Virus record (IMG/VR): IMGVR_UViG_2740892426_000004
Coordinates: 1-40,253 of that record
Length of the DNA: 40,253 nucleotides
Direction: 5' to 3' (one strand)
From: a virus
Taxonomy: Duplodnaviria; Heunggongvirae; Uroviricota; Caudoviricetes
The notes beneath the pieces are model-generated. The model was not told where the DNA came from and searched no databases. It worked only from the letters and a program-made list of their open reading frames with translations. The translations under genes and the position numbers were made by a program. Of this stretch, positions 1 to 40,253 are shown in pieces. Numbering within the stretch: position 1 is the stretch's first letter; the number at the start of each line of letters is the position of its first letter.

Positions 1-1248
1 ATGGCACTGAATATTCCATTCAGAAATGCGTACTATCGTTTTGCATCCAGTTACTCATTTCTCTTTTTTATTTCCTGGTCGCTGTGGTGGTCATTATACG
101 CTATTTGGCTGAAAGGACATCTAGGGTTGACAGGGACGGAATTAGGTACACTTTATTCGGTCAACCAGTTTACCAGCATTCTATTTATGATGTTCTACGG
201 CATCGTTCAGGATAAACTCGGTCTGAAGAAACCGCTCATCTGGTGTATGAGTTTCATCTTGGTCTTGACCGGACCGTTTATGATTTACGTTTATGAACCG
301 TTACTGCAAAGCAATTTTTCTGTAGGTTTAATTCTGGGTGCGCTCTTTTTTGGTCTGGGGTATCTGGCGGGATGCGGTTTGCTTGACAGCTTCACCGAAA
401 AAATGGCGCGAAATTTTCATTTCGAATATGGAACAGCGCGCGCCTGGGGATCTTTTGGCTATGCTATTGGCGCATTCTTTGCTGGCATATTTTTTAGTAT
501 CAGTCCCCATATCAACTTCTGGTTGGTCTCTCTATTTGGCGCTGTATTTATGATGATCAACATGCGTTTTAAAGATCAGGAACACCAGTGCGTAGCGGCG
601 GATGTGGGAGGGGTAAAAAAAGAGGATTTTATCGCAGTTTTCAAGGATCGAAACTTCTGGGTTTTCGTCATATTTATTGTGGGGACGTGGTCTTTCTATA
701 ACATTTTTGATCAACAACTCTTTCCTGTCTTTTATGCAGGTTTATTCGAATCACACGATGTAGGAACGCGCCTGTATGGTTATCTCAACTCATTCCAGGT
801 GGTACTCGAAGCGCTGTGCATGGCGATTATTCCTTTCTTTGTGAATCGGGTAGGGCCAAAAAATGCATTACTTATCGGTGTTGTGATTATGGCGTTGCGT
901 ATCCTTTCCTGCGCGCTATTCGTTAACCCCTGGATTATTTCATTAGTGAAGCTGTTACATGCCATTGAGGTTCCACTTTGTGTCATATCCGTCTTCAAAT
1001 ACAGCGTGGCAAATTTTGATAAGCGCCTGTCGTCGACGATCTTTCTGATTGGTTTTCAAATTGCCAGTTCGTTGGGGATTGTGCTGCTTTCAACGCCGAC
1101 TGGGATACTCTTTGACCACGCAGGCTACCAGACGGTTTTTTTCGCAATTTCGGGTATTGTCTGCCTGATGTTGCTATTTGGCATTTTCTTCCTGAGTAAA
1201 AAACGTGAGCAAATAGTGATGGAAACGCCAGTACCTTCAGCAATATAA
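1..1248 (+). CDS. cscB: LacY-family sugar:H+ symporter, sucrose permease CscB-like (host flank)
   Basis: 415-aa ORF starting at pos 1; polytopic membrane protein with LacY-like motifs; recalled near-identity to E. coli CscB; stop TAA 1246-1248. Confidence 0.8.
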   Translation: MALNIPFRNAYYRFASSYSFLFFISWSLWWSLYAIWLKGHLGLTGTELGTLYSVNQFTSILFMMFYGIVQDKLGLKKPLIWCMSFILVLTGPFMIYVYEPLLQSNFSVGLILGALFFGLGYLAGCGLLDSFTEKMARNFHFEYGTARAWGSFGYAIGAFFAGIFFSISPHINFWLVSLFGAVFMMINMRFKDQEHQCVAADVGGVKKEDFIAVFKDRNFWVFVIFIVGTWSFYNIFDQQLFPVFYAGLFESHDVGTRLYGYLNSFQVVLEALCMAIIPFFVNRVGPKNALLIGVVIMALRILSCALFVNPWIISLVKLLHAIEVPLCVISVFKYSVANFDKRLSSTIFLIGFQIASSLGIVLLSTPTGILFDHAGYQTVFFAISGIVCLMLLFGIFFLSKKREQIVMETPVPSAI

Positions 1249-1775: not shown

Positions 1776-1976
1776 TTACCCATCGGCGCGGCTTAAGAGC
1801 TTATTTTTGAACTCACAATGGTCACGATATAACCACCTTGCTCGCCCGTGGATAACTTTGGCTTTTGGCAGGTCGCCGGACTTAATCCGGTCATAGATGA
1901 AGGTTTTACCGAAGCCAGTATCGGCCATGATGAATTTCAAATCAACCAGTGAATCAGGCTGTAGTTCGTGTTGCAT
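1776..1976 (-). CDS. torI: AlpA-family excisionase / recombination directionality factor TorI
   Basis: 66-aa ORF MQHELQPDSLVDLKFIMADTGFGKTFIYDRIKSGDLPKAK...; recalled identity to KplE1 TorI; GGAG RBS 9 nt upstream. Confidence 0.85.
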   Translation of the reverse strand: MQHELQPDSLVDLKFIMADTGFGKTFIYDRIKSGDLPKAKVIHGRARWLYRDHCEFKNKLLSRADG

Positions 1977-1985
1977 GAGTGCTAT

Positions 1986-2002
1986 CTCCGAATAGGGAAT
2001 CG
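1986..2002 (-). other. tRNA T-arm-like segment (minus strand TTTGCAGGTTCGATTCC) immediately upstream of torI
   Basis: Contains canonical T-loop GGTTCGATTCC; together with 1687-1702 would reconstitute a complete tRNA T-arm and acceptor 3' end. Confidence 0.45.
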
Positions 2003-2011
2003 AACCTGCAA

Positions 2012-2032
2012 ATCAGGCAATAAAAAAACCGC
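2012..2032 (-). terminator. rho-independent terminator upstream of torI
   Basis: Minus strand CCGCA-TCAA-TGCGG hairpin followed by TTTTTTT. Confidence 0.55.
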
Positions 2033-2099
2033 ATTGATGCGGCAATGGCAGGTCTGGATATCTTGAGAAATGAACAGGCCTCATCGAGTGTGAGGCGGG

Positions 2100-2444
2100 T
2101 TAGTCCTTGCGTAGCTCGCTGATTCTTCTGTAAGTCTCTGGTGCTTTGTTCCCGTACGTCTTCATTTCAGACTTCAACAGAGCAACGAGGGAATCCCATT
2201 CGTTGAGGATTCCTTTGAATGCCGGAACGCGCTTTGCAACCTTGTTGAATGAATCTCTGATTTCTGGAATCTGCTCAACAAGTGCAACGCATCGCCGAAA
2301 GTCTGCTGCGTCATGGGGAGCGCCGAAGTGATGACCATAGATATTCTTTTTCAGTCCACATGCGATTGAGGCAAGAGTTGCGCTACTGATGCCGACATCG
2401 CCAGTTGATTGCCATTTCAAAACCTTCATAGCCAAATCTGACAT
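2100..2444 (-). CDS. hypothetical prophage protein (114 aa)
   Basis: ORF in track 2100..2471; start moved to MSDLAMKV (ATG 2444) because upstream Met lies inside a terminator hairpin; GGAG RBS 7 nt upstream. Confidence 0.5.
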   Translation of the reverse strand: MSDLAMKVLKWQSTGDVGISSATLASIACGLKKNIYGHHFGAPHDAADFRRCVALVEQIPEIRDSFNKVAKRVPAFKGILNEWDSLVALLKSEMKTYGNKAPETYRRISELRKD

Positions 2445-2457
2445 TTCTTGTCTCCAA

Positions 2458-2478
2458 TAAAAAACCGCCATCAGGCGG
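2458..2478 (-). terminator. rho-independent terminator between two small early-left genes
   Basis: Minus strand CCGCC-TGAT-GGCGG hairpin followed by TTTTTTT, then RBS of next gene. Confidence 0.55.
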
Positions 2479-2638
2479 ATTGGTGTTCTTTCAGTTCTTC
2501 AATTCGAATATTGGTTACGTCTGCATGCGCTATCTGCGCCCATATCATCCAGTGGTTATAGCAGTCGTTGATGTCCTCTGCTTCGATAACCCTGTCGAAT
2601 GGCTCTCCATTCCATTCACCTGTGACTCGGAAGTGCAT
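2471..2638 (-). CDS. hypothetical small protein (55 aa)
   Basis: ORF MHFRVTGEWNGEPFDRVIEAEDINDCYNHWMIWAQIAHADVTNIRIEELKEHQSA with GGAG RBS 7 nt upstream; below 60-aa cutoff of ORF track. Confidence 0.4.
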   Translation of the reverse strand: MHFRVTGEWNGEPFDRVIEAEDINDCYNHWMIWAQIAHADVTNIRIEELKEHQSA

Positions 2639-2645
2639 TTATCAT

Positions 2646-2676
2646 CTCCATAAAACAAAACTCGCCGTAGCGAGTT
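2646..2676 (-). terminator. candidate rho-independent terminator
   Basis: Minus strand AACTCGC-TACG-GCGAGTT hairpin followed by TTGTTTTAT. Confidence 0.4.
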
Positions 2677-2756
2677 CAGATAAAAGAAATCCCCGCGAGT
2701 TCGAGGATTGTTATTCATTGCCGATATTCACCTTTATCGCGAACACCTTTACCGGT

Positions 2757-2999
2757 TTATCTCCTTTGCATAGCACGTAATTTTTTCAGATGGTTCTCCT
2801 GTTCTGTTTCAGCCAGGATCTGGTGATATTCTCTGTGATCAATGTGTTCGAATAAATTATTGAATTTTCTGATGCACACTCTTCCAGGATAGCCATCCAT
2901 CCTCTTGAAGAATACTGAGTGATCAGTACTACGAATGATTTTTACTGGATAGCCAGCGCTATCGGTGTATATCTGACCACGTTGAATCAGAGAGAACAT
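2757..2999 (-). CDS. hypothetical prophage protein (80 aa)
   Basis: ORF with ATG at 2999; no recognisable motif. Confidence 0.5.
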   Translation of the reverse strand: MFSLIQRGQIYTDSAGYPVKIIRSTDHSVFFKRMDGYPGRVCIRKFNNLFEHIDHREYHQILAETEQENHLKKLRAMQRR

Positions 3000-3065
3000 T
3001 CGTTTATCCCCAGATAAAAATATAGCAATACCAATTACATAAAATACTTCAGGCCAAGCATCATT

Positions 3066-3707
3066 TCACCCCTGCGGCGGTTCTGGCAGCGGCATCCAGT
3101 GGGTTACACCGTCAATTGGTTCGTCGTCGTCGTACTCCAATGCGGCCATATAGAACCCGTCACGACGAGAATAAGAAATCCCTGACATTACAATGCCATC
3201 CGAAACAACAATAATGTCACCCGTTTCTTCCGGCATTCGCTCACTACAGCTTATCCAACCATCCGGAATTACCGGAGAGTTGCCGGGTTCTTTAATGTGC
3301 AAGCGAGGCTCACCATCTTTTGGCTCAGGCCACTGGCGCTCCATGTTGATCTTCAATTTATCTTCCATAGCAGCGGTAATTTCAGCATCGCTGATGCCAG
3401 CACGGCGCTGTGCATCCCACAACAGGAACTGCATATCAGCCCACTCGCTGAGATCGTCAGGTTCGGCTGCGGCTTCCAGAGCCTCTTTTGAGAGGTGTTT
3501 CAGTGGACCAATGGGGCCAACGCAGCCAAATGTGGAGTCAGACCATTTGGCATGCTCGTGGCGAATCTGTTCGCGTTCCAGCGATGCCAGAGCAATTCGT
3601 GCCAGTTCTTCCGCTTCTTCTGCTGGCAGTACAACGTTGCTACCAGGTCCGTATGTTTCGCGCCACTGCTTGATTGTCAGCAGTCGCTCTTTGGTAATAG
3701 TTGTCAT
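3066..3707 (-). CDS. DUF550/DUF551-like prophage protein (213 aa)
   Basis: C-terminus ...THWMPLPEPPQG resembles DUF551 signature common in enterobacterial prophage early regions; ATGA overlap with upstream gene. Confidence 0.6.
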   Translation of the reverse strand: MTTITKERLLTIKQWRETYGPGSNVVLPAEEAEELARIALASLEREQIRHEHAKWSDSTFGCVGPIGPLKHLSKEALEAAAEPDDLSEWADMQFLLWDAQRRAGISDAEITAAMEDKLKINMERQWPEPKDGEPRLHIKEPGNSPVIPDGWISCSERMPEETGDIIVVSDGIVMSGISYSRRDGFYMAALEYDDDEPIDGVTHWMPLPEPPQG

Positions 3708-8067: not shown

Positions 8068-8249
8068 CTATTCATATCCTCATAGATAAAAAATCGCCCT
8101 CACATTGGAGGGCAAAGAAGATTTCCAATAATCAGAACAAGTCGGCTCCTGTTTAGTTACGAGCGACATTGCTCCGTGTATTCACTCGTTGGAATGAATA
8201 CACAGTGCAGTGTTTATTCTGTTGTTTATGCCAAAAATAAAGGCCACCA

Positions 8250-8450
8250 TCAGGCAGCCTTGTTATTCTGTTTACCAAGTTCTCTGGCAATCATTGCCGT
8301 CGTTCGTATTGCCCATTTATCGACATATTTCCCATCTTCTATTACAGGAAACATTTCTTCAGGCTTAACCATGCATTCCGATTGCAGCTTGCATCCATTG
8401 CATCGTTTGAATTGTCCACACCATTGATTCTTATCAATAGTCGTAGTCAT
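8250..8450 (-). CDS. ral: restriction alleviation protein Ral
   Basis: 66-aa ORF MTTTIDKNQWCGQFKRCNGCKLQSECMVKPEEMF... recalled near-identity to lambda Ral. Confidence 0.85.
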   Translation of the reverse strand: MTTTIDKNQWCGQFKRCNGCKLQSECMVKPEEMFPVIEDGKYVDKWAIRTTAMIARELGKQNNKAA

Positions 8451-8528: not shown

Positions 8529-8828
8529 TCAAATAAGTGGCTTGCTGCCTAATTTCATTTTCTGGCGACCAACACAAGTCACACCCATTTCACTGCGTGG
8601 CTTGCGGTAGTAAATACGGTTCTGTTTACGCTCGACTTCATCTGCCTTCTTGCAGAGAAGGCTGCCAAGTGATGCTGCTTTGTCTGCTCTGACGCAACCA
8701 GAGAGCTTTAGCGCAATCTTCCGCGCCAGTCGCTGTTCTTTCATTGCCTGTTCACGTTGAGCCTGTCTGCGTGCTCTGCGGCGATTTCTGGCGTTATCGT
8801 CAGCCAGATATGTAATGACTACTGTCAT
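8529..8828 (-). CDS. N-like transcription antitermination protein (P22 gene 24-like)
   Basis: 99-aa ORF with N-terminal arginine-rich motif NARNRRRARRQAQREQ; first gene downstream of PL/nutL; GGAGG RBS. Confidence 0.65.
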   Translation of the reverse strand: MTVVITYLADDNARNRRRARRQAQREQAMKEQRLARKIALKLSGCVRADKAASLGSLLCKKADEVERKQNRIYYRKPRSEMGVTCVGRQKMKLGSKPLI

Positions 8829-8855: not shown

Positions 8856-8953
8856 GTGACGTGACGTGACGTGACGTGACGTGACGTGACGTGACGTGAC
8901 GTGACGTGACGTGACGTGACGTGACGTGACGTGACGTGACGGGGGGAGGGAGG
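8856..8953. repeat. perfect pentanucleotide microsatellite (GTGAC)x17 followed by G-rich tract GGGGGGAGGGAGG
   Basis: 85 bp of uninterrupted GTGAC units (8856-8940) then 13-nt G-tract; lies in PL transcript leader between nutL and the N-like start. Confidence 0.95.
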
Positions 8954-9018: not shown

Positions 9019-9059
9019 CCCGCATTTCGGCGGGACAATCCCATCAATGTTAAAGAGCC
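9019..9059 (-). promoter_or_regulatory. nutL (boxA GGCTCTTTAACA and boxB hairpin CCCGC-CGAAAT-GCGGG)
   Basis: boxA-like and boxB stem-loop on minus strand downstream of PL; identical boxB found at nutR. Confidence 0.7.
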
Positions 9060-9221: not shown

Positions 9222-9872
9222 TTATGGAAGGTTTGCTATTTTTGCATCGACAACTACACCGATGATTTTGCAGTTCCCGTTGATCTCAATCATCGGATAT
9301 TGTGGGTTAAGTGGTTTTAGAAACCTCCTGCCAGCATCAATAACTAACTTCTTGAAAGTTGCCTCGTTTTCTCCTTCGAGCTTTGCCACTACCAGCTTCC
9401 CATTACGAGGTTCTACTTCAGGATCGACGAGTATTATCATCCCTTCAGGGATGCTAAGACCGGCTGGAGCCGTCATCGAATCACCTTTTACGTCCAGCCA
9501 AAACGAATCTTCTGAACAATCTACGGTTGTATCGTACCAGTTATCTATTGCACGCTTATGATATGGCTCTACAGCTTCCATCCAACATCCTGCGCTTACC
9601 CAACTAATTAGAGGATACGAACCTCTTGGATCATGCCTGCTGTGATAGGCAATGTTTGAAAGACTATCTTCTCCTTTCAACAAGTAATCAGGGGAGCACT
9701 GCAAAGCCTTGGCTAAGGCCAATAGGTTTTCGCCATTGGGCTCAGTTTCAGAACGCTCCCATTGGGAAATAGCAACATTAGACACGCCAACCATCTTGCC
9801 AAGGGCAGCCTGCCTAATCTTGAGTTCTTTTCTGCGAGCGCGAATACGCTCACCCATCAGTTGTGTATTCAT
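9222..9872 (-). CDS. c2: C2-type (cI-like) prophage repressor, LexA-like autopeptidase fold
   Basis: 216-aa ORF MNTQLMGERIRARRKELKIRQAALGKMVGVSNVAISQWERSETEPNGENLLAL...; recalled near-identity to P22 C2. Confidence 0.9.
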   Translation of the reverse strand: MNTQLMGERIRARRKELKIRQAALGKMVGVSNVAISQWERSETEPNGENLLALAKALQCSPDYLLKGEDSLSNIAYHSRHDPRGSYPLISWVSAGCWMEAVEPYHKRAIDNWYDTTVDCSEDSFWLDVKGDSMTAPAGLSIPEGMIILVDPEVEPRNGKLVVAKLEGENEATFKKLVIDAGRRFLKPLNPQYPMIEINGNCKIIGVVVDAKIANLP

Positions 9873-10144: not shown

Positions 10145-10188
10145 TGCTCTTTAACAGTCATGGTCCTCATTCCCGCCGAAATGCGGGA
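10145..10188 (+). promoter_or_regulatory. nutR (boxA TGCTCTTTAACA and boxB CCCGC-CGAAAT-GCGGG)
   Basis: Same boxA/boxB elements as nutL, located just downstream of cro. Confidence 0.7.
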
Positions 10189-16970: not shown

Positions 16971-17045
16971 GGGTCAGTCGTATAAAGGTCATTACGGAAG
17001 GCTGTTAACCTTCTTATCGTGGTTCGAGTCCACGCTGTCCCGCCA
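16971..17045 (+). tRNA. tRNA-Asn(GUU)-like, with two stem mismatches
   Basis: 75-nt cloverleaf by manual folding: anticodon arm GAAGG-CTGTTAA-CCTTC, T-arm CGTGG-TTCGAGT-CCACG, 3' end CTGTCCC-G-CCA; one mismatch each in acceptor and D stems. Confidence 0.45.
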
Positions 17046-17050
17046 AACAT

Positions 17051-17126
17051 GCTGGTTTAGCTCCAATGGTAGAGCAGTCGCCTTGTAAGCGAATGGGTGG
17101 CGGTTCAAGTCCGTTAATCAGCACCA
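17051..17126 (+). tRNA. tRNA-Thr(UGU)
   Basis: 76-nt cloverleaf: acceptor GCTGGTT/AATCAGC, D-arm GCTC-CAATGGTA-GAGC, anticodon loop CTTGTAA, T-loop TTCAAGT, A73-CCA. Confidence 0.65.
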
Positions 17127-29048: not shown

Positions 29049-29749
29049 TGGCTGATTCGAATCTCAATGAGCCGGTAACAATTCAGGCTACACGACTCGA
29101 TACATCAATCCTTCCACGCAATATATTCAGCCAGTCTTACCTGCTGTATGTCATTAATCAGGGGGCTGATGTCGGCGCAATTGCCGGGAAGGCAAATCAG
29201 GCTGGTCAGGGCGCTTACGATGCTCAGGTGAAAAACGATGAACAGGACGTCGAACTGGCAGATCACGATTCAAGAATCACCGCAAACACAAAAGCGATAA
29301 ATCTCCTTGAGGTCAGGTTAACAACTGCCGAAGGGAAGATAGTCGTACTGCGTAGCGATGTTGATTACTTGCTGGATGAGGTTATCGATATTCAGGCGCA
29401 TCTGGTCACTGTTGACAAAAGACTGGATGGCGTAGAAAGCGATGTATCTGACATTAAGAGTAATTACGTATCGAAAACTGTAACCAAATCGCAGTCTCTT
29501 GCGTCACCGCTGGATGTAAAAACATCATATTCAGTTGATGGAATTCAGGTCGTTGGAGCAAGGCAGACCGGATGGACTGCAGCCACAGGTACGCCACTTC
29601 TTGGTTCATTCAACGCTAACCAGTCATACACGGTCGGCACTACGTACACACAATCCGAAGTCGCAGCTCTCGCTACAGGTTTGGAGCAGGCGCGGCAGCG
29701 TATTCTGGCGCTTGAAACGGCACTTAGATTACATGGGCTGATTGACTGA
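29048..29749 (+). CDS. tail needle protein (P22 gp26-like)
   Basis: 233-aa ORF with extended coiled-coil heptads, same length as P22 gp26. Confidence 0.75.
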
Positions 29750-39095: not shown

Positions 39096-40253
39096 TCACT
39101 CCGCCTTTTCATCAAGCCAGTCCGCCCACCACTGCATCATTTCTCTGCGCTTATCGAGATACTGAGCGTGGTTGTAAATCCCGCGTACAGATCCGCCGTT
39201 GGCATGTGCCAGTTGCACTTCAATAGCGTCAGCAGGCCATTCGTGCTCGTTCATAATCGTGCTGAATTCATGCCTGAATCCGTGACCGCTTTCCAGACCT
39301 TCATAGCCGATTTGTTTGATCACAAGCAATACCGCGTTCTCGCAGATTGGCTTCTTCTTATCGTTGCGCCCGGCAAAAACAAACTCTGAGACTGGTTTGG
39401 TGATTGAGCTTAGCGTAGTGAGAAGTTCAACCACCTGGTCTGACATCGGGACCACATGAATTTTGCGTCCCTTCATCACACTGGCGTCGATGGTGATAAT
39501 CCTGTTTTCAAAATCGACGTTCTTCCATAGCATGGAACGAAGCTCTTTTGTTCTTAGGGCTGTGTAGCGTAAAACTTTGGTCGCAATGAGCGATACGATA
39601 CTTCCTGAAAATGTTGCAAGTGCTTTGTTGAATGCCGGGATCTGGTCTGCAGGAAGAAACGGGAAGTTCTTCTTGCGGTATCCCTTCATGGCGTCAGCAA
39701 GGTCAGGTGCCGGGTTATATTTAGCCCTACCAGTGACAATAGCGTAACGGAAAACCTCGCCGCATCTTCTGCGTGCTTTGTTGGCTCGCTCCATTGCGCC
39801 GCGATCTTCAAATCTGCGGATTACTTCCAGCAGTTGCATCGGCTCAATATCCTGAATCTCAAGACCGCCGATGATGGGTAAAATGTCGTCATCAAACATT
39901 TTGGCAAGTTCATTTGCATAGCCTACTGACCAGACTTGCTTCTTGTGCTCGTACCATTCCTTGTAAATGGCGCTAAAGGAATTGTTGTTAGACGAAGCCT
40001 TTTTCGCTTTTACCGGATCGATGCCAACCGAGATGTCTTTCCTCGCGGTCCATGCTTTATCCCTTGCCTCCTGCAAAGTCATAAGCGGATATTTTCCAAC
40101 GGTCAGGATTTTCTCCTTACCGTCAATCTTGTAGCGAAGCTGCCATACCTTTTTCCCTGATACAGGGACATAAAGGTACAGGCCATTACCATCGAGTAGG
40201 CGGTATGGTTTTTCTTTCGGCTTTGCTGCTTCAATCTGCTTAACGGTGAGCAT
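39096..40253 (-). CDS. intS: P4-type tyrosine integrase IntS (KplE1/CPS-53 family)
   Basis: 385-aa ORF MLTVKQIEAAKPKEKPYRLLDGNGLYLYVPVSGKKVWQLRYKIDGKEKILTVGKYPL... recalled near-identity to E. coli IntS; start codon at the last three bases of the window. Confidence 0.85.
   Translation of the reverse strand: MLTVKQIEAAKPKEKPYRLLDGNGLYLYVPVSGKKVWQLRYKIDGKEKILTVGKYPLMTLQEARDKAWTARKDISVGIDPVKAKKASSNNNSFSAIYKEWYEHKKQVWSVGYANELAKMFDDDILPIIGGLEIQDIEPMQLLEVIRRFEDRGAMERANKARRRCGEVFRYAIVTGRAKYNPAPDLADAMKGYRKKNFPFLPADQIPAFNKALATFSGSIVSLIATKVLRYTALRTKELRSMLWKNVDFENRIITIDASVMKGRKIHVVPMSDQVVELLTTLSSITKPVSEFVFAGRNDKKKPICENAVLLVIKQIGYEGLESGHGFRHEFSTIMNEHEWPADAIEVQLAHANGGSVRGIYNHAQYLDKRREMMQWWADWLDEKAE

Follow-up and report, generated by a model that had tools for sequence, protein, structure and literature searches.

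Predicted terminator hairpins ahead of orf55, orf114 and torI in the early-left operon of a lambdoid prophage, with counterparts in lambda, 434 and HK022

The sequence analysed here, referred to as the window, is the whole 40,253-nucleotide stretch of IMG/VR virus record IMGVR_UViG_2740892426_000004. Its minus strand carries, in leftward order, the small genes orf55 and orf114 and the excisionase gene torI (Table 1). In all likelihood, it is here that the pL operon of a P22-like prophage has its distal end; the prophage looks intact, is integrated at argW and is equipped with a recombination module of the KplE1/HK620 type. The exact prophage was not found among the complete E. coli genomes searched, where the best match had 82% coverage at about 96% identity. 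ORF55 and ORF114 had no match in Pfam, PDB-sequence or PADLOC searches, and the orf55 product has been suggested, as a speculation, to be perhaps T7 Gp2-like (PMC8614690). A scan of genome contigs with ORF114 returned three loci, all at least 96% identical. The orf55-orf114 segment sits between the ea genes and xis in lambda, 434, HK022 and many Stx phages.

Table 1. Features of the leftward operon and the N/nut system, in window coordinates (d, discriminant score; dG in kcal/mol).
Feature	Position	Strand	Remarks
torI, excisionase (recombination directionality factor), KplE1/HK620-type module	1776..1976	-	PMC3509656, PMC2951348
t'I-type hairpin + U7	2021..2043	-	d = 17.5
Hairpin GCCUCA-CACUCGA-UGAGGC	2078..2096	-	dG -8.7; 3 nt past orf114 stop
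orf114	2100..2444	-	PHROG 1229, E 2.7e-51; homologue of 434 ORF114
orf55-stop hairpin + U6	2459..2478	-	d = 31
orf55	2471..2638	-	PHROG 676, E 1.2e-38; homologue of lambda orf55/lambdap35 and 434 ORF55
Hairpin tL4b + U-tract	2648..2677	-	d = 15.7
Hairpin tL4a (AAUCCUCG-AACUCG-CGGGGAUU)	2688..2709	-	dG -9.7, z -3.7
Two promoter-proximal terminator-like hairpins (8259-8242, 8115-8094)	8094..8261	-	d = 15.2 and 22.4
N-like antiterminator gene	8529..8828	-	PHROG 271, E 1.4e-35; 69% identical to phage 21 N
nutL: boxA GCTCTTTAACA + boxB hairpin CCCGCCGAAATGCGGG	9019..9058	-	3' of pL-like promoter
pL-like promoter	9133-9105	-	start of leftward operon
nutR: boxA + boxB same as nutL	10146..10187	+	just 3' of cro-like gene

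On the minus strand, GC-rich hairpins with U-tracts lie just 5' of the ribosome binding sites (RBS) of orf55, orf114 and torI, all three co-directional with the early-left genes. Their stems comprise 5-8 bp, of which 4-5 are G-C, their folding energies are -8.2 to -11.9 kcal/mol, and in each a U-rich tract adjoins the stem (U6, U7 or UUUUGUUUU). The hairpin before orf55, tL4b (2677-2658), has a CUCGC/GCGAG stem that extends to 8 bp, a UACG loop and a dG of -11.9; beyond its tail, UUUUGUUUUAU, orf55 has its GGAG at 2649-2646 and its ATG at 2638. Before orf114 stands the orf55-stop hairpin (2478-2465; CCGCC-UGAU-GGCGG, dG -9.6), the loop of which holds the UGA stop codon of orf55; after it come the U6 run and then, for orf114, GGAG at 2455-2452 and ATG at 2444. 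The t'I-type hairpin (2043-2028; GCCGCA-UCAA-UGCGGU, dG -8.2, fold z only -1.6) runs into U7, and torI has its GGAG at 1989-1986 and its ATG at 1976. The first-pass annotation had listed these three hairpins and placed one at 2458-2478, which is right, and one at 2646-2676, which is essentially right; its third, at 2012-2032, is off by about 11 nt and spans just the 3' arm, the U-tract and bases downstream of the t'I-type hairpin. It had missed two more. One is tL4a (2709-2688), the first of a tandem pair with tL4b, which scores below 0 owing to its weak tail (UCUUUUAUC at 2687-2679). The other, at 2096-2078, has a poor U-tract (CUGUUCAUUU), is also present in K-12 KplE1, and its role is uncertain.

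Sites were scored with a d'Aubenton-Carafa-type discriminant, those above 0 being taken as qualifying. In the whole 40-kb window 12 sites on both strands qualified, the three hairpins before the small genes among them, and the orf55-stop hairpin ranked second best. Three qualifying sites fall in the 709 nt from 2012 to 2720, while every one of 200 dinucleotide-preserving shuffles contained none. Over the entire early-left operon, five qualifying sites were observed against a shuffle mean of 0.03, and a looser terminator scan gave 19 sites where 7.4 +/- 3.2 were expected. The clustering of terminator-like hairpins thus exceeds chance. The earlier view that terminator-like hairpins with U-tracts precede the three small genes is borne out, with a corrected position for the third, and we regard these hairpins as genuine terminator-like signals.

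These hairpins are already known elements. HK022 and 434 share 93-97% identity with the orf55-orf114 segment, the orf55 part of which also aligns closely with lambda (29059-29419). The hairpins are identical to, or one to two bases apart from, the tL4 and t'I elements annotated in these phages, and the gene order around them agrees as well, since they are in the distal pL operon, flank orf55 and orf114, and lie 5' of the excisionase gene. By sequence, tL4a is the orthologue of the 'tL4 terminator' of HK022 (X51962), of 't-L4' of 434 (M60848) and of the predicted t3_lambda; it is this hairpin, at 2709-2688, to which the GenBank label tL4 actually belongs. Its partner tL4b matches the predicted t4_lambda with one stem base different (G.U for A-U). 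Like the tL4 of HK022 and 434 and t3/t4 of lambda, the tandem pair lies 5' of orf55; the gene 5' of the pair is a DUF4222 gene here and ea8.5 in lambda. The first stem has G.U in the window where 434 has A-U, and the second has A-U where lambda, 434 and HK022 have G.U. The orf55-stop hairpin corresponds to the predicted t5_lambda, and the t'I-type hairpin to t'-I of 434 (M60848 and OL657226, the latter citing PMID 6305007). The names tL4 and t'I were given by the depositors of the GenBank records, and the lambda copies are given as predicted terminators t3, t4 and t5 in a 2014 paper (PMC4195576, Table 4). A search of one literature library for tL4, tL2 and tL3 found nothing.

Both t'I of 434 and t5 of lambda stand immediately 5' of the excisionase gene, as the t'I-type hairpin does here. 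In lambda, it is t5, the equivalent of our hairpin 2478-2465, that fills the t'I position, directly 5' of pI and xis. By contrast, the gene 3' of the t'I-type hairpin is torI, a KplE1/HK620-type excisionase gene unrelated to lambda xis. In place of the CII-dependent pI of lambda and 434 there is a torI leader with a 16-nt argW-like string; in the prophage, moreover, no int gene lies downstream.

The operon begins at a pL-like promoter and is provided with an N-like gene and nut sites. The boxA+boxB pattern occurs in two exact copies in the window, where none would be expected, and nutL lies where phage 21 (OL657228) has its annotated nutL and boxA-L. The pL promoter, OL operators and boxA are nearly identical in phage 21 and in this prophage. 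Both the arginine-rich N-terminal motif of N and boxB differ, while the rest of N is conserved, and a (GTCAC)17 repeat is inserted here between nutL and N. The Pfam N_peptide match of the N-like protein fell below the cut-off (19.5 versus 27.9 bits). A change in both the N motif and boxB, with boxA, pL and the rest of N kept, is the pattern expected of a working specificity pair, and it suggests that the two form a pair of different specificity from that of phage 21. N is needed for the expression of genes distal to terminators (PMC7084815), and in lambda xis and int are transcribed from pL by way of N antitermination (PMC2951348). Given a matching N-type system and nut sites in the expected places, the textbook would have these genes rely on readthrough from pL mediated by N.

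We consider it highly probable that the orf55-orf114 segment carries intrinsic terminators of its own, as predicted for tL4a/tL4b, the orf55-stop hairpin and the t'I-type hairpin. In the most likely mechanism, polymerase that had not been modified at nutL would stop, at least partly, at these distal hairpins and at the two stronger sites nearer pL, which sit between ral and the DUF2528 gene. Once the prophage is induced, N would bind boxB and render the elongation complex resistant to terminators. The small genes and torI would then be read from pL, so that excisionase would be made only in the lytic programme. In lambda, the mRNA of genes past a predicted terminator between exo and xis is lower even in lytic growth (PMC4195576), so that polymerase may not pass these sites completely even when N is present. 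The first-pass annotation held that the hairpins make the distal genes strictly dependent on N-mediated antitermination, or on unrecognised local promoters. The terminator anatomy, the leftward pL operon, the N-like gene, the nut sites and the lack of a competing promoter in the scans described below all speak for N-dependence, but 'strictly' overstates the case: sequence cannot prove it, as stems of only 5-8 bp and -8 to -12 kcal/mol may let some polymerase through. Moreover, the two stronger terminators nearer pL would already impose N-dependence on everything downstream, so that the distal hairpins would add insulation rather than dependence.

Comparison with about 165 related loci indicates that the same stretches are also places of gene exchange. 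Across this set, orf55 and orf114 are present or absent independently of each other, and the points where homology breaks off are concentrated at window positions 2636-2641, 2462, 2098, 2066, 2047 and 2023. The junctions fall in a hairpin 3' arm, a U-tract or an RBS, and hybrid joints lie inside common strings such as GCGGTTTTTTATTG and TTTTAT(T)GGAGA. A hairpin scoring above 0 was found within 90 nt 5' of torI at 108 of 120 loci and within 60 nt 5' of orf114 at 100 of 103; the corresponding figure for lambda-type xis is an artefact, since the anchor cut off the tail, and is disregarded. Depending on the locus, torI has the t'I or the orf55-stop hairpin before it, and orf114 the orf55-stop hairpin or tL4b. 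Among 116 instances of tL4b there were 12 variants, and some loci carry unrelated hairpins in the tL4a position, before the same U-tail. Covariation in the t'I and orf55-stop hairpins was not significant, with one compensatory pair each and the observed value reached in 69-169 of 500 shuffles; the homologues are too similar for covariation to be telling. As orf55 and orf114 have been gained or lost at stretches of hairpin, U-tract and RBS, the terminators double as module boundaries, which is a known idea. More tentatively, and with slightly less than even confidence, we propose that hairpin, U-tract and RBS are the actual crossover substrates for insertion and deletion of orf55 and orf114, and that they could also join this cargo to unrelated excisionase modules (lambda xis or torI). 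The situation resembles the boundary or linker sequences and morons of lambdoid mosaicism in that single small genes lie between short conserved strings and are independently present. It differs in that the linker is here the terminator itself, and in that a moron in the strict sense has its own promoter and terminator, whereas no cassette-specific promoter was found in the scan of 7300-1977.

The same observations could be taken to mean that the hairpins are chiefly recombination linkers, at which homologous or microhomology exchange at gene ends shuffles one-gene cassettes, termination being incidental or weak. The clustered breakpoints, the independent presence of orf55 and orf114 and the joints in common strings are what such a role predicts, and a feature named 'boundary sequence' is found at another place in this type of phage, in the record of CUS-3. 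It would nevertheless leave unexplained why a GC-rich hairpin with a U-run is found on the transcribed strand only, and why unrelated sequences in the same position again form a hairpin with a U-tail. We regard a chiefly linker role as possible, with the balance against it; it is compatible with termination rather than exclusive of it.

It is unlikely that the hairpins serve mainly to stabilise the long pL transcript or direct its processing. In that role they would shield 3' ends or mark off processed segments, and the relative mRNA levels of the small genes would follow from this rather than from stopping the polymerase. The hairpin at 2096-2078 would suit such a role: it lacks a U-tract, most variants preserve its stem but differ in the loop, and a place right after a stop codon fits a 3'-end protector. 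Against this, the 6-7 consecutive U or UUUUGUUUU directly past the stem of the three hairpins before orf55, orf114 and torI is a termination signature that stability would not need. An Rfam scan of the whole window matched two tRNAs only, with no family over the hairpins or the nut sites.

We give still less credence to local promoters, such as a CII-dependent pI-like promoter after the t'I hairpin, driving torI and the cargo while the terminators only insulate. The earlier annotation had allowed for unrecognised promoters of this kind, and there are grounds for looking: 434 and lambda have a CII site and pI directly 3' of the equivalent hairpin, a similar string (TTGCCTGATTTGC) survives in the torI leader, and CII- and CIII-like genes are present in the prophage. 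The spacing in the torI leader is TTGC-N5-TTGC rather than N6, which fails the CII-site pattern, and no TTGY-N6-TTGY site was found 5' of torI. A consensus scan of the minus strand from 7300 to 1977 (torI) gave no sigma-70-like promoter, although such a scan can miss weak or activator-dependent ones. A CII-activated excisionase would in any case oppose lysogenisation, and intS has its own promoter in this module (PMC2951348). Finally, chance inverted repeats in AT-rich intergenic DNA, to which the short stems and the t'I fold z might point, are effectively refuted by the discriminant scan and the shuffles, and all the hairpins are intergenic, occur on the transcribed strand and have conserved counterparts in lambda, 434 and HK022.

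Read as terminators, the hairpins are ordinary and near-identical to the copies in lambda, 434 and HK022, and they have little importance beyond annotation. Their cassette junctions illustrate lambdoid mosaic assembly and could guide the annotation of orf55 and orf114 boundaries, the boundary-sequence idea itself being old. If the crossover proposal is true, promoter-less gene cassettes of lambdoid phages would have terminators as their portable 'attachment' ends. What the locus adds is that an argW-integrated P22-like prophage with a torI/intS module keeps lambda-style terminators before its excisionase gene. This arrangement fits the view that excisionase output is coupled to the lytic transcript antiterminated by N, and excision with it.

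The three hairpins that the first-pass annotation placed upstream of the small early-left genes orf55, orf114 and torI are real. Its coordinates hold for the first two, hairpin 1 (tL4b) and hairpin 2 (the orf55-stop hairpin), but the third pair, 2012-2032, spans only the 3' arm and downstream bases of hairpin 3 (t'I). Hairpin 1 is followed by UUUUGUUUUAU, GGAG and the orf55 ATG at 2638. Hairpin 2, whose loop contains the orf55 stop codon, is followed by U6, GGAG and the orf114 ATG at 2444, and hairpin 3 by U7 and, past a leader of 32 nt, by GGAG and the torI ATG (1976). All early-left genes are on the minus strand of a P22-like prophage (nearest phage relatives Kapi1, N7, CUS-3 and similar) lying between cscB and the integrase gene. 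Its att core agrees with that published for KplE1 (PMC2951348). It also carries two tRNA genes, Asn(GTT) and Thr(TGT), on the plus strand at 16971-17126, 5 nt apart.

Features of the prophage and its early-left operon (d, terminator score)
Feature	Coordinates	Strand	Details
cscB	1-1248	+	sucrose permease gene; first gene of window
att core CTGCAGGGGACACCA	1702-1688		matches argW 3' end
torI	1776-1976	-	excisionase of KplE1/HK620/Sf6 recombination module (PMC3509656); prophage left end
hairpin 3 (t'I)	2043-2028	-	GCCGCA-UCAA-UGCGGU, -8.2 kcal/mol
additional hairpin	2096-2078	-	3 nt past orf114 stop; without good U-tract; absent from first pass
hairpin 2 (orf55-stop)	2478-2465	-	CCGCC-UGAU-GGCGG, -9.6 kcal/mol
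hairpin 1 (tL4b)	2677-2658	-	at most 8 bp, UACG loop, -11.9 kcal/mol
tL4a hairpin	2709-2688	-	-9.7 kcal/mol, tail UCUUUUAUC; tandem with hairpin 1; absent from first pass
proximal terminator pair	8259-8242, 8115-8094	-	after ral; d = 15 and 22
N-like gene	8529-8828	-	99-residue product; N-like PHROG family, E 1.4e-35
nutL (boxA + boxB)	9019-9058	-	between pL and N
pL-like promoter	9133-9105	-	start of early-left genes; after cI-like repressor gene
cI-like repressor gene	9222-9872
nutR (boxA + boxB)	10146-10187	+	directly past cro-like gene
integrase gene, start	39096-40253	-	other end of window

Terminator prediction used a d'Aubenton-Carafa-type discriminant, d, which is approximate since it was computed with current energy parameters. 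The three hairpins (d = 15.7, 31 and 17.5, respectively) are among only 12 sites with d > 0 in the whole window. No such site appeared in 200 dinucleotide-preserving shuffles of 2012-2720, and the entire early-left operon holds five against a shuffle mean of 0.03, so that a chance origin is excluded. Related loci were gathered as well, comprising 80 viral and three genome loci that carry ORF114, 80 that carry TorI, plus reference records. Of 120 loci with torI, 108 (37 of 44 distinct upstream sequences) have a hairpin with d > 0 in the 90 nt before the gene; for orf114, where the interval was 60 nt, the figure is 100 of 103 (26 of 29), the two sets sharing contigs. One pair of the t'I stem occurs as C-G, U.G (14 loci) or U-A (one locus); in the orf55-stop stem G-C is replaced by U-A in one locus (L023) and by a G.A mismatch in 434. 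Stem covariation was not significant, since 69-169 of 500 shuffle controls scored at least as high as the real stems; the test has little power because proteins in the gathered loci are 96-100% identical.

In a phage record search, window 2023-2764 was 93-97% identical to HK022, 434 and many Stx/lambdoid phages. The 434 record M60848 labels ORF55, ORF114 and the terminators t-L4 and t'-I, the HK022 record X51962 labels a tL4 terminator, and a recent 434 genome (OL657226) annotates a terminator before xis, citing PMID 6305007. Mapped through alignment, t'-I corresponds to 2043-2028 and tL4 to 2709-2688, the hairpin that the first pass had missed. Lambda has the same tandem pair, then orf55 (lambdap35, 29118-29285) and the orf55-stop hairpin, which there directly precedes pI/xis; orf114 is absent from lambda. 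The lambda copies are the ARNold-predicted terminators t3 (...AATCCTCGCA CT CGCGGGGATTTATTTTATCTG), t4 (...CTGAACTCGC TACG GCGGGTTTTGTTTTATG) and t5 (...GCCGCCTGATGGCGGTTTTTTCTTGCGTG) of Bloch et al., 2014 (PMC4195576, Table 4). Each reported hairpin is therefore the orthologue of an element that earlier work had predicted or annotated as a terminator, and the elements were thus known before from lambda, 434 and HK022. As for the cargo genes, orf55 (PHROG 676) and orf114 (PHROG 1229) belong to families with no assigned function, their products gave no Pfam, PDB-sequence or PADLOC match, and lambda Orf55 has been likened, speculatively, to T7 Gp2 in a modelling paper (PMC8614690).

The N-like product shares 69% identity with phage 21 N and matches Pfam N_peptide below threshold. 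Two copies of the boxA-boxB pattern GCTCTTTAACA-N-CCCGCCGAAATGCGGG, and no more, lie in the window, where none is expected by chance; their positions match the annotated phage 21 boxA-L and nutL. While boxA, pL, the operators (OL) and the C-terminal two thirds of N are near-identical to phage 21, the arginine-rich motif of N (NARNRRRARRQAQREQ versus TAKSRYKARRAELIAERR) and boxB (CCCGCCGAAATGCGGG versus CTCAACCTAACCGTTGAG) both differ. N is a hybrid of phage 21 N in which the motif and its matching boxB look to have been swapped as a specificity module, with the appearance of a working, co-adapted pair. N-dependent readthrough of the terminators is, on this pattern, a well-founded inference. 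The N leader, from nutL to the start codon, also contains a perfect pentanucleotide microsatellite, (GTCAC)17 (8856-8941, minus strand), which yields a spurious ORF reading SRHVT repeats; phage 21 has a single GCGTCATGC there. A change in its length could alter N expression.

Terminators of the early-left operon fall into two clusters, the proximal pair and a distal group at orf55, orf114 and torI. By textbook lambda logic (PMC7084815, PMC2951348), all genes past the proximal pair would already require antitermination, and the distal hairpins would add insulation before each small gene, most relevantly before the excisionase gene. No sigma-70-like promoter was found on the minus strand between 7300 and torI, and a search for the CII-type pattern TTGY-N6-TTGY ahead of torI was likewise negative; TTGC-N5-TTGC in the torI leader is like the lambda/434 pI CII site except that its spacing is wrong. 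The first pass held expression of the distal genes to be strictly dependent on N antitermination or on unrecognised local promoters. As the standard lambda model, N dependence is probably right in outline, but strictness cannot be claimed, given the short stems and the finding that lambda mRNA past a predicted exo-xis terminator is lower even during lytic growth (PMC4195576).

Compared with the CII-binding pI region TTGCGTGTAATTGCGG of lambda, 434 and HK022, the torI leader string TTGCCTGATTTGCAGG (2014-2027) is similar but has a spacing of N5 instead of N6. Hybrid joints fall inside this leader string in some loci, which suggests that it is an exchange point of lambda-xis and torI modules. 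A 16-mer, TTGCAGGTTCGATTCC (1996-2011, minus strand), located after the t'I hairpin and before the torI ribosome-binding site, reproduces exactly the stretch of tRNA-Arg argW, in the variable loop and T-arm, that directly adjoins the att core TGCAGGGGACACCA on its 5' side. About 293 bp of prophage, including torI, separate the 16-mer from the core (1688-1702), and the torI segment looks as though it interrupts a 30-nt copy of the argW 3' half. K-12 KplE1 keeps the 16-mer, and so do the examined torI loci save for rare single-base variants; it shares TGCAGG with the core and so could be an additional integrase-binding site. Upstream of torI, the defective KplE1/CPS-53 prophage (K-12 MG1655 2476180-2476310) carries a GCCTCACACTCGATGAGGC hairpin and a degenerate t'I, GCCGTCATAGAGCGT; these are recognizable as remnants of the 3' flank of orf114, the gene itself being gone.

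The mosaicism of the related loci says more than their covariation: homology breakpoints concentrate at window 2636-2641, 2462, 2098, 2066, 2047 and 2023. About half of the loci have the orf55-stop hairpin upstream of orf114, and the other half have tL4b directly, without orf55; torI is preceded either by t'I or, without orf114, directly by orf55 and its stop hairpin. Alternative downstream genes bring their own hairpin and U-run, some loci have unrelated GC-rich hairpins at the tL4a position before the same UUUCUUUUAUCUGA tail, and joints fall in strings such as GCGGTTTTTTATTG and TTTTAT(T)GGAGA, which the 3' arms and tails of the hairpins have in common. Many related phages (loci such as L011, L024 and L050) retain only the last 16 orf55 codons and the orf55-stop hairpin, joined at window-equivalent 2518 to unrelated AT-rich sequence upstream; there the 3' end and terminator travel together while the gene body is replaced. 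From the mosaic pattern, the terminators behave like the termini of small gene cassettes that lack promoters. This secondary reading can stand alongside the main one, termination, and agrees with the long-standing boundary-sequence idea for lambdoid mosaicism.
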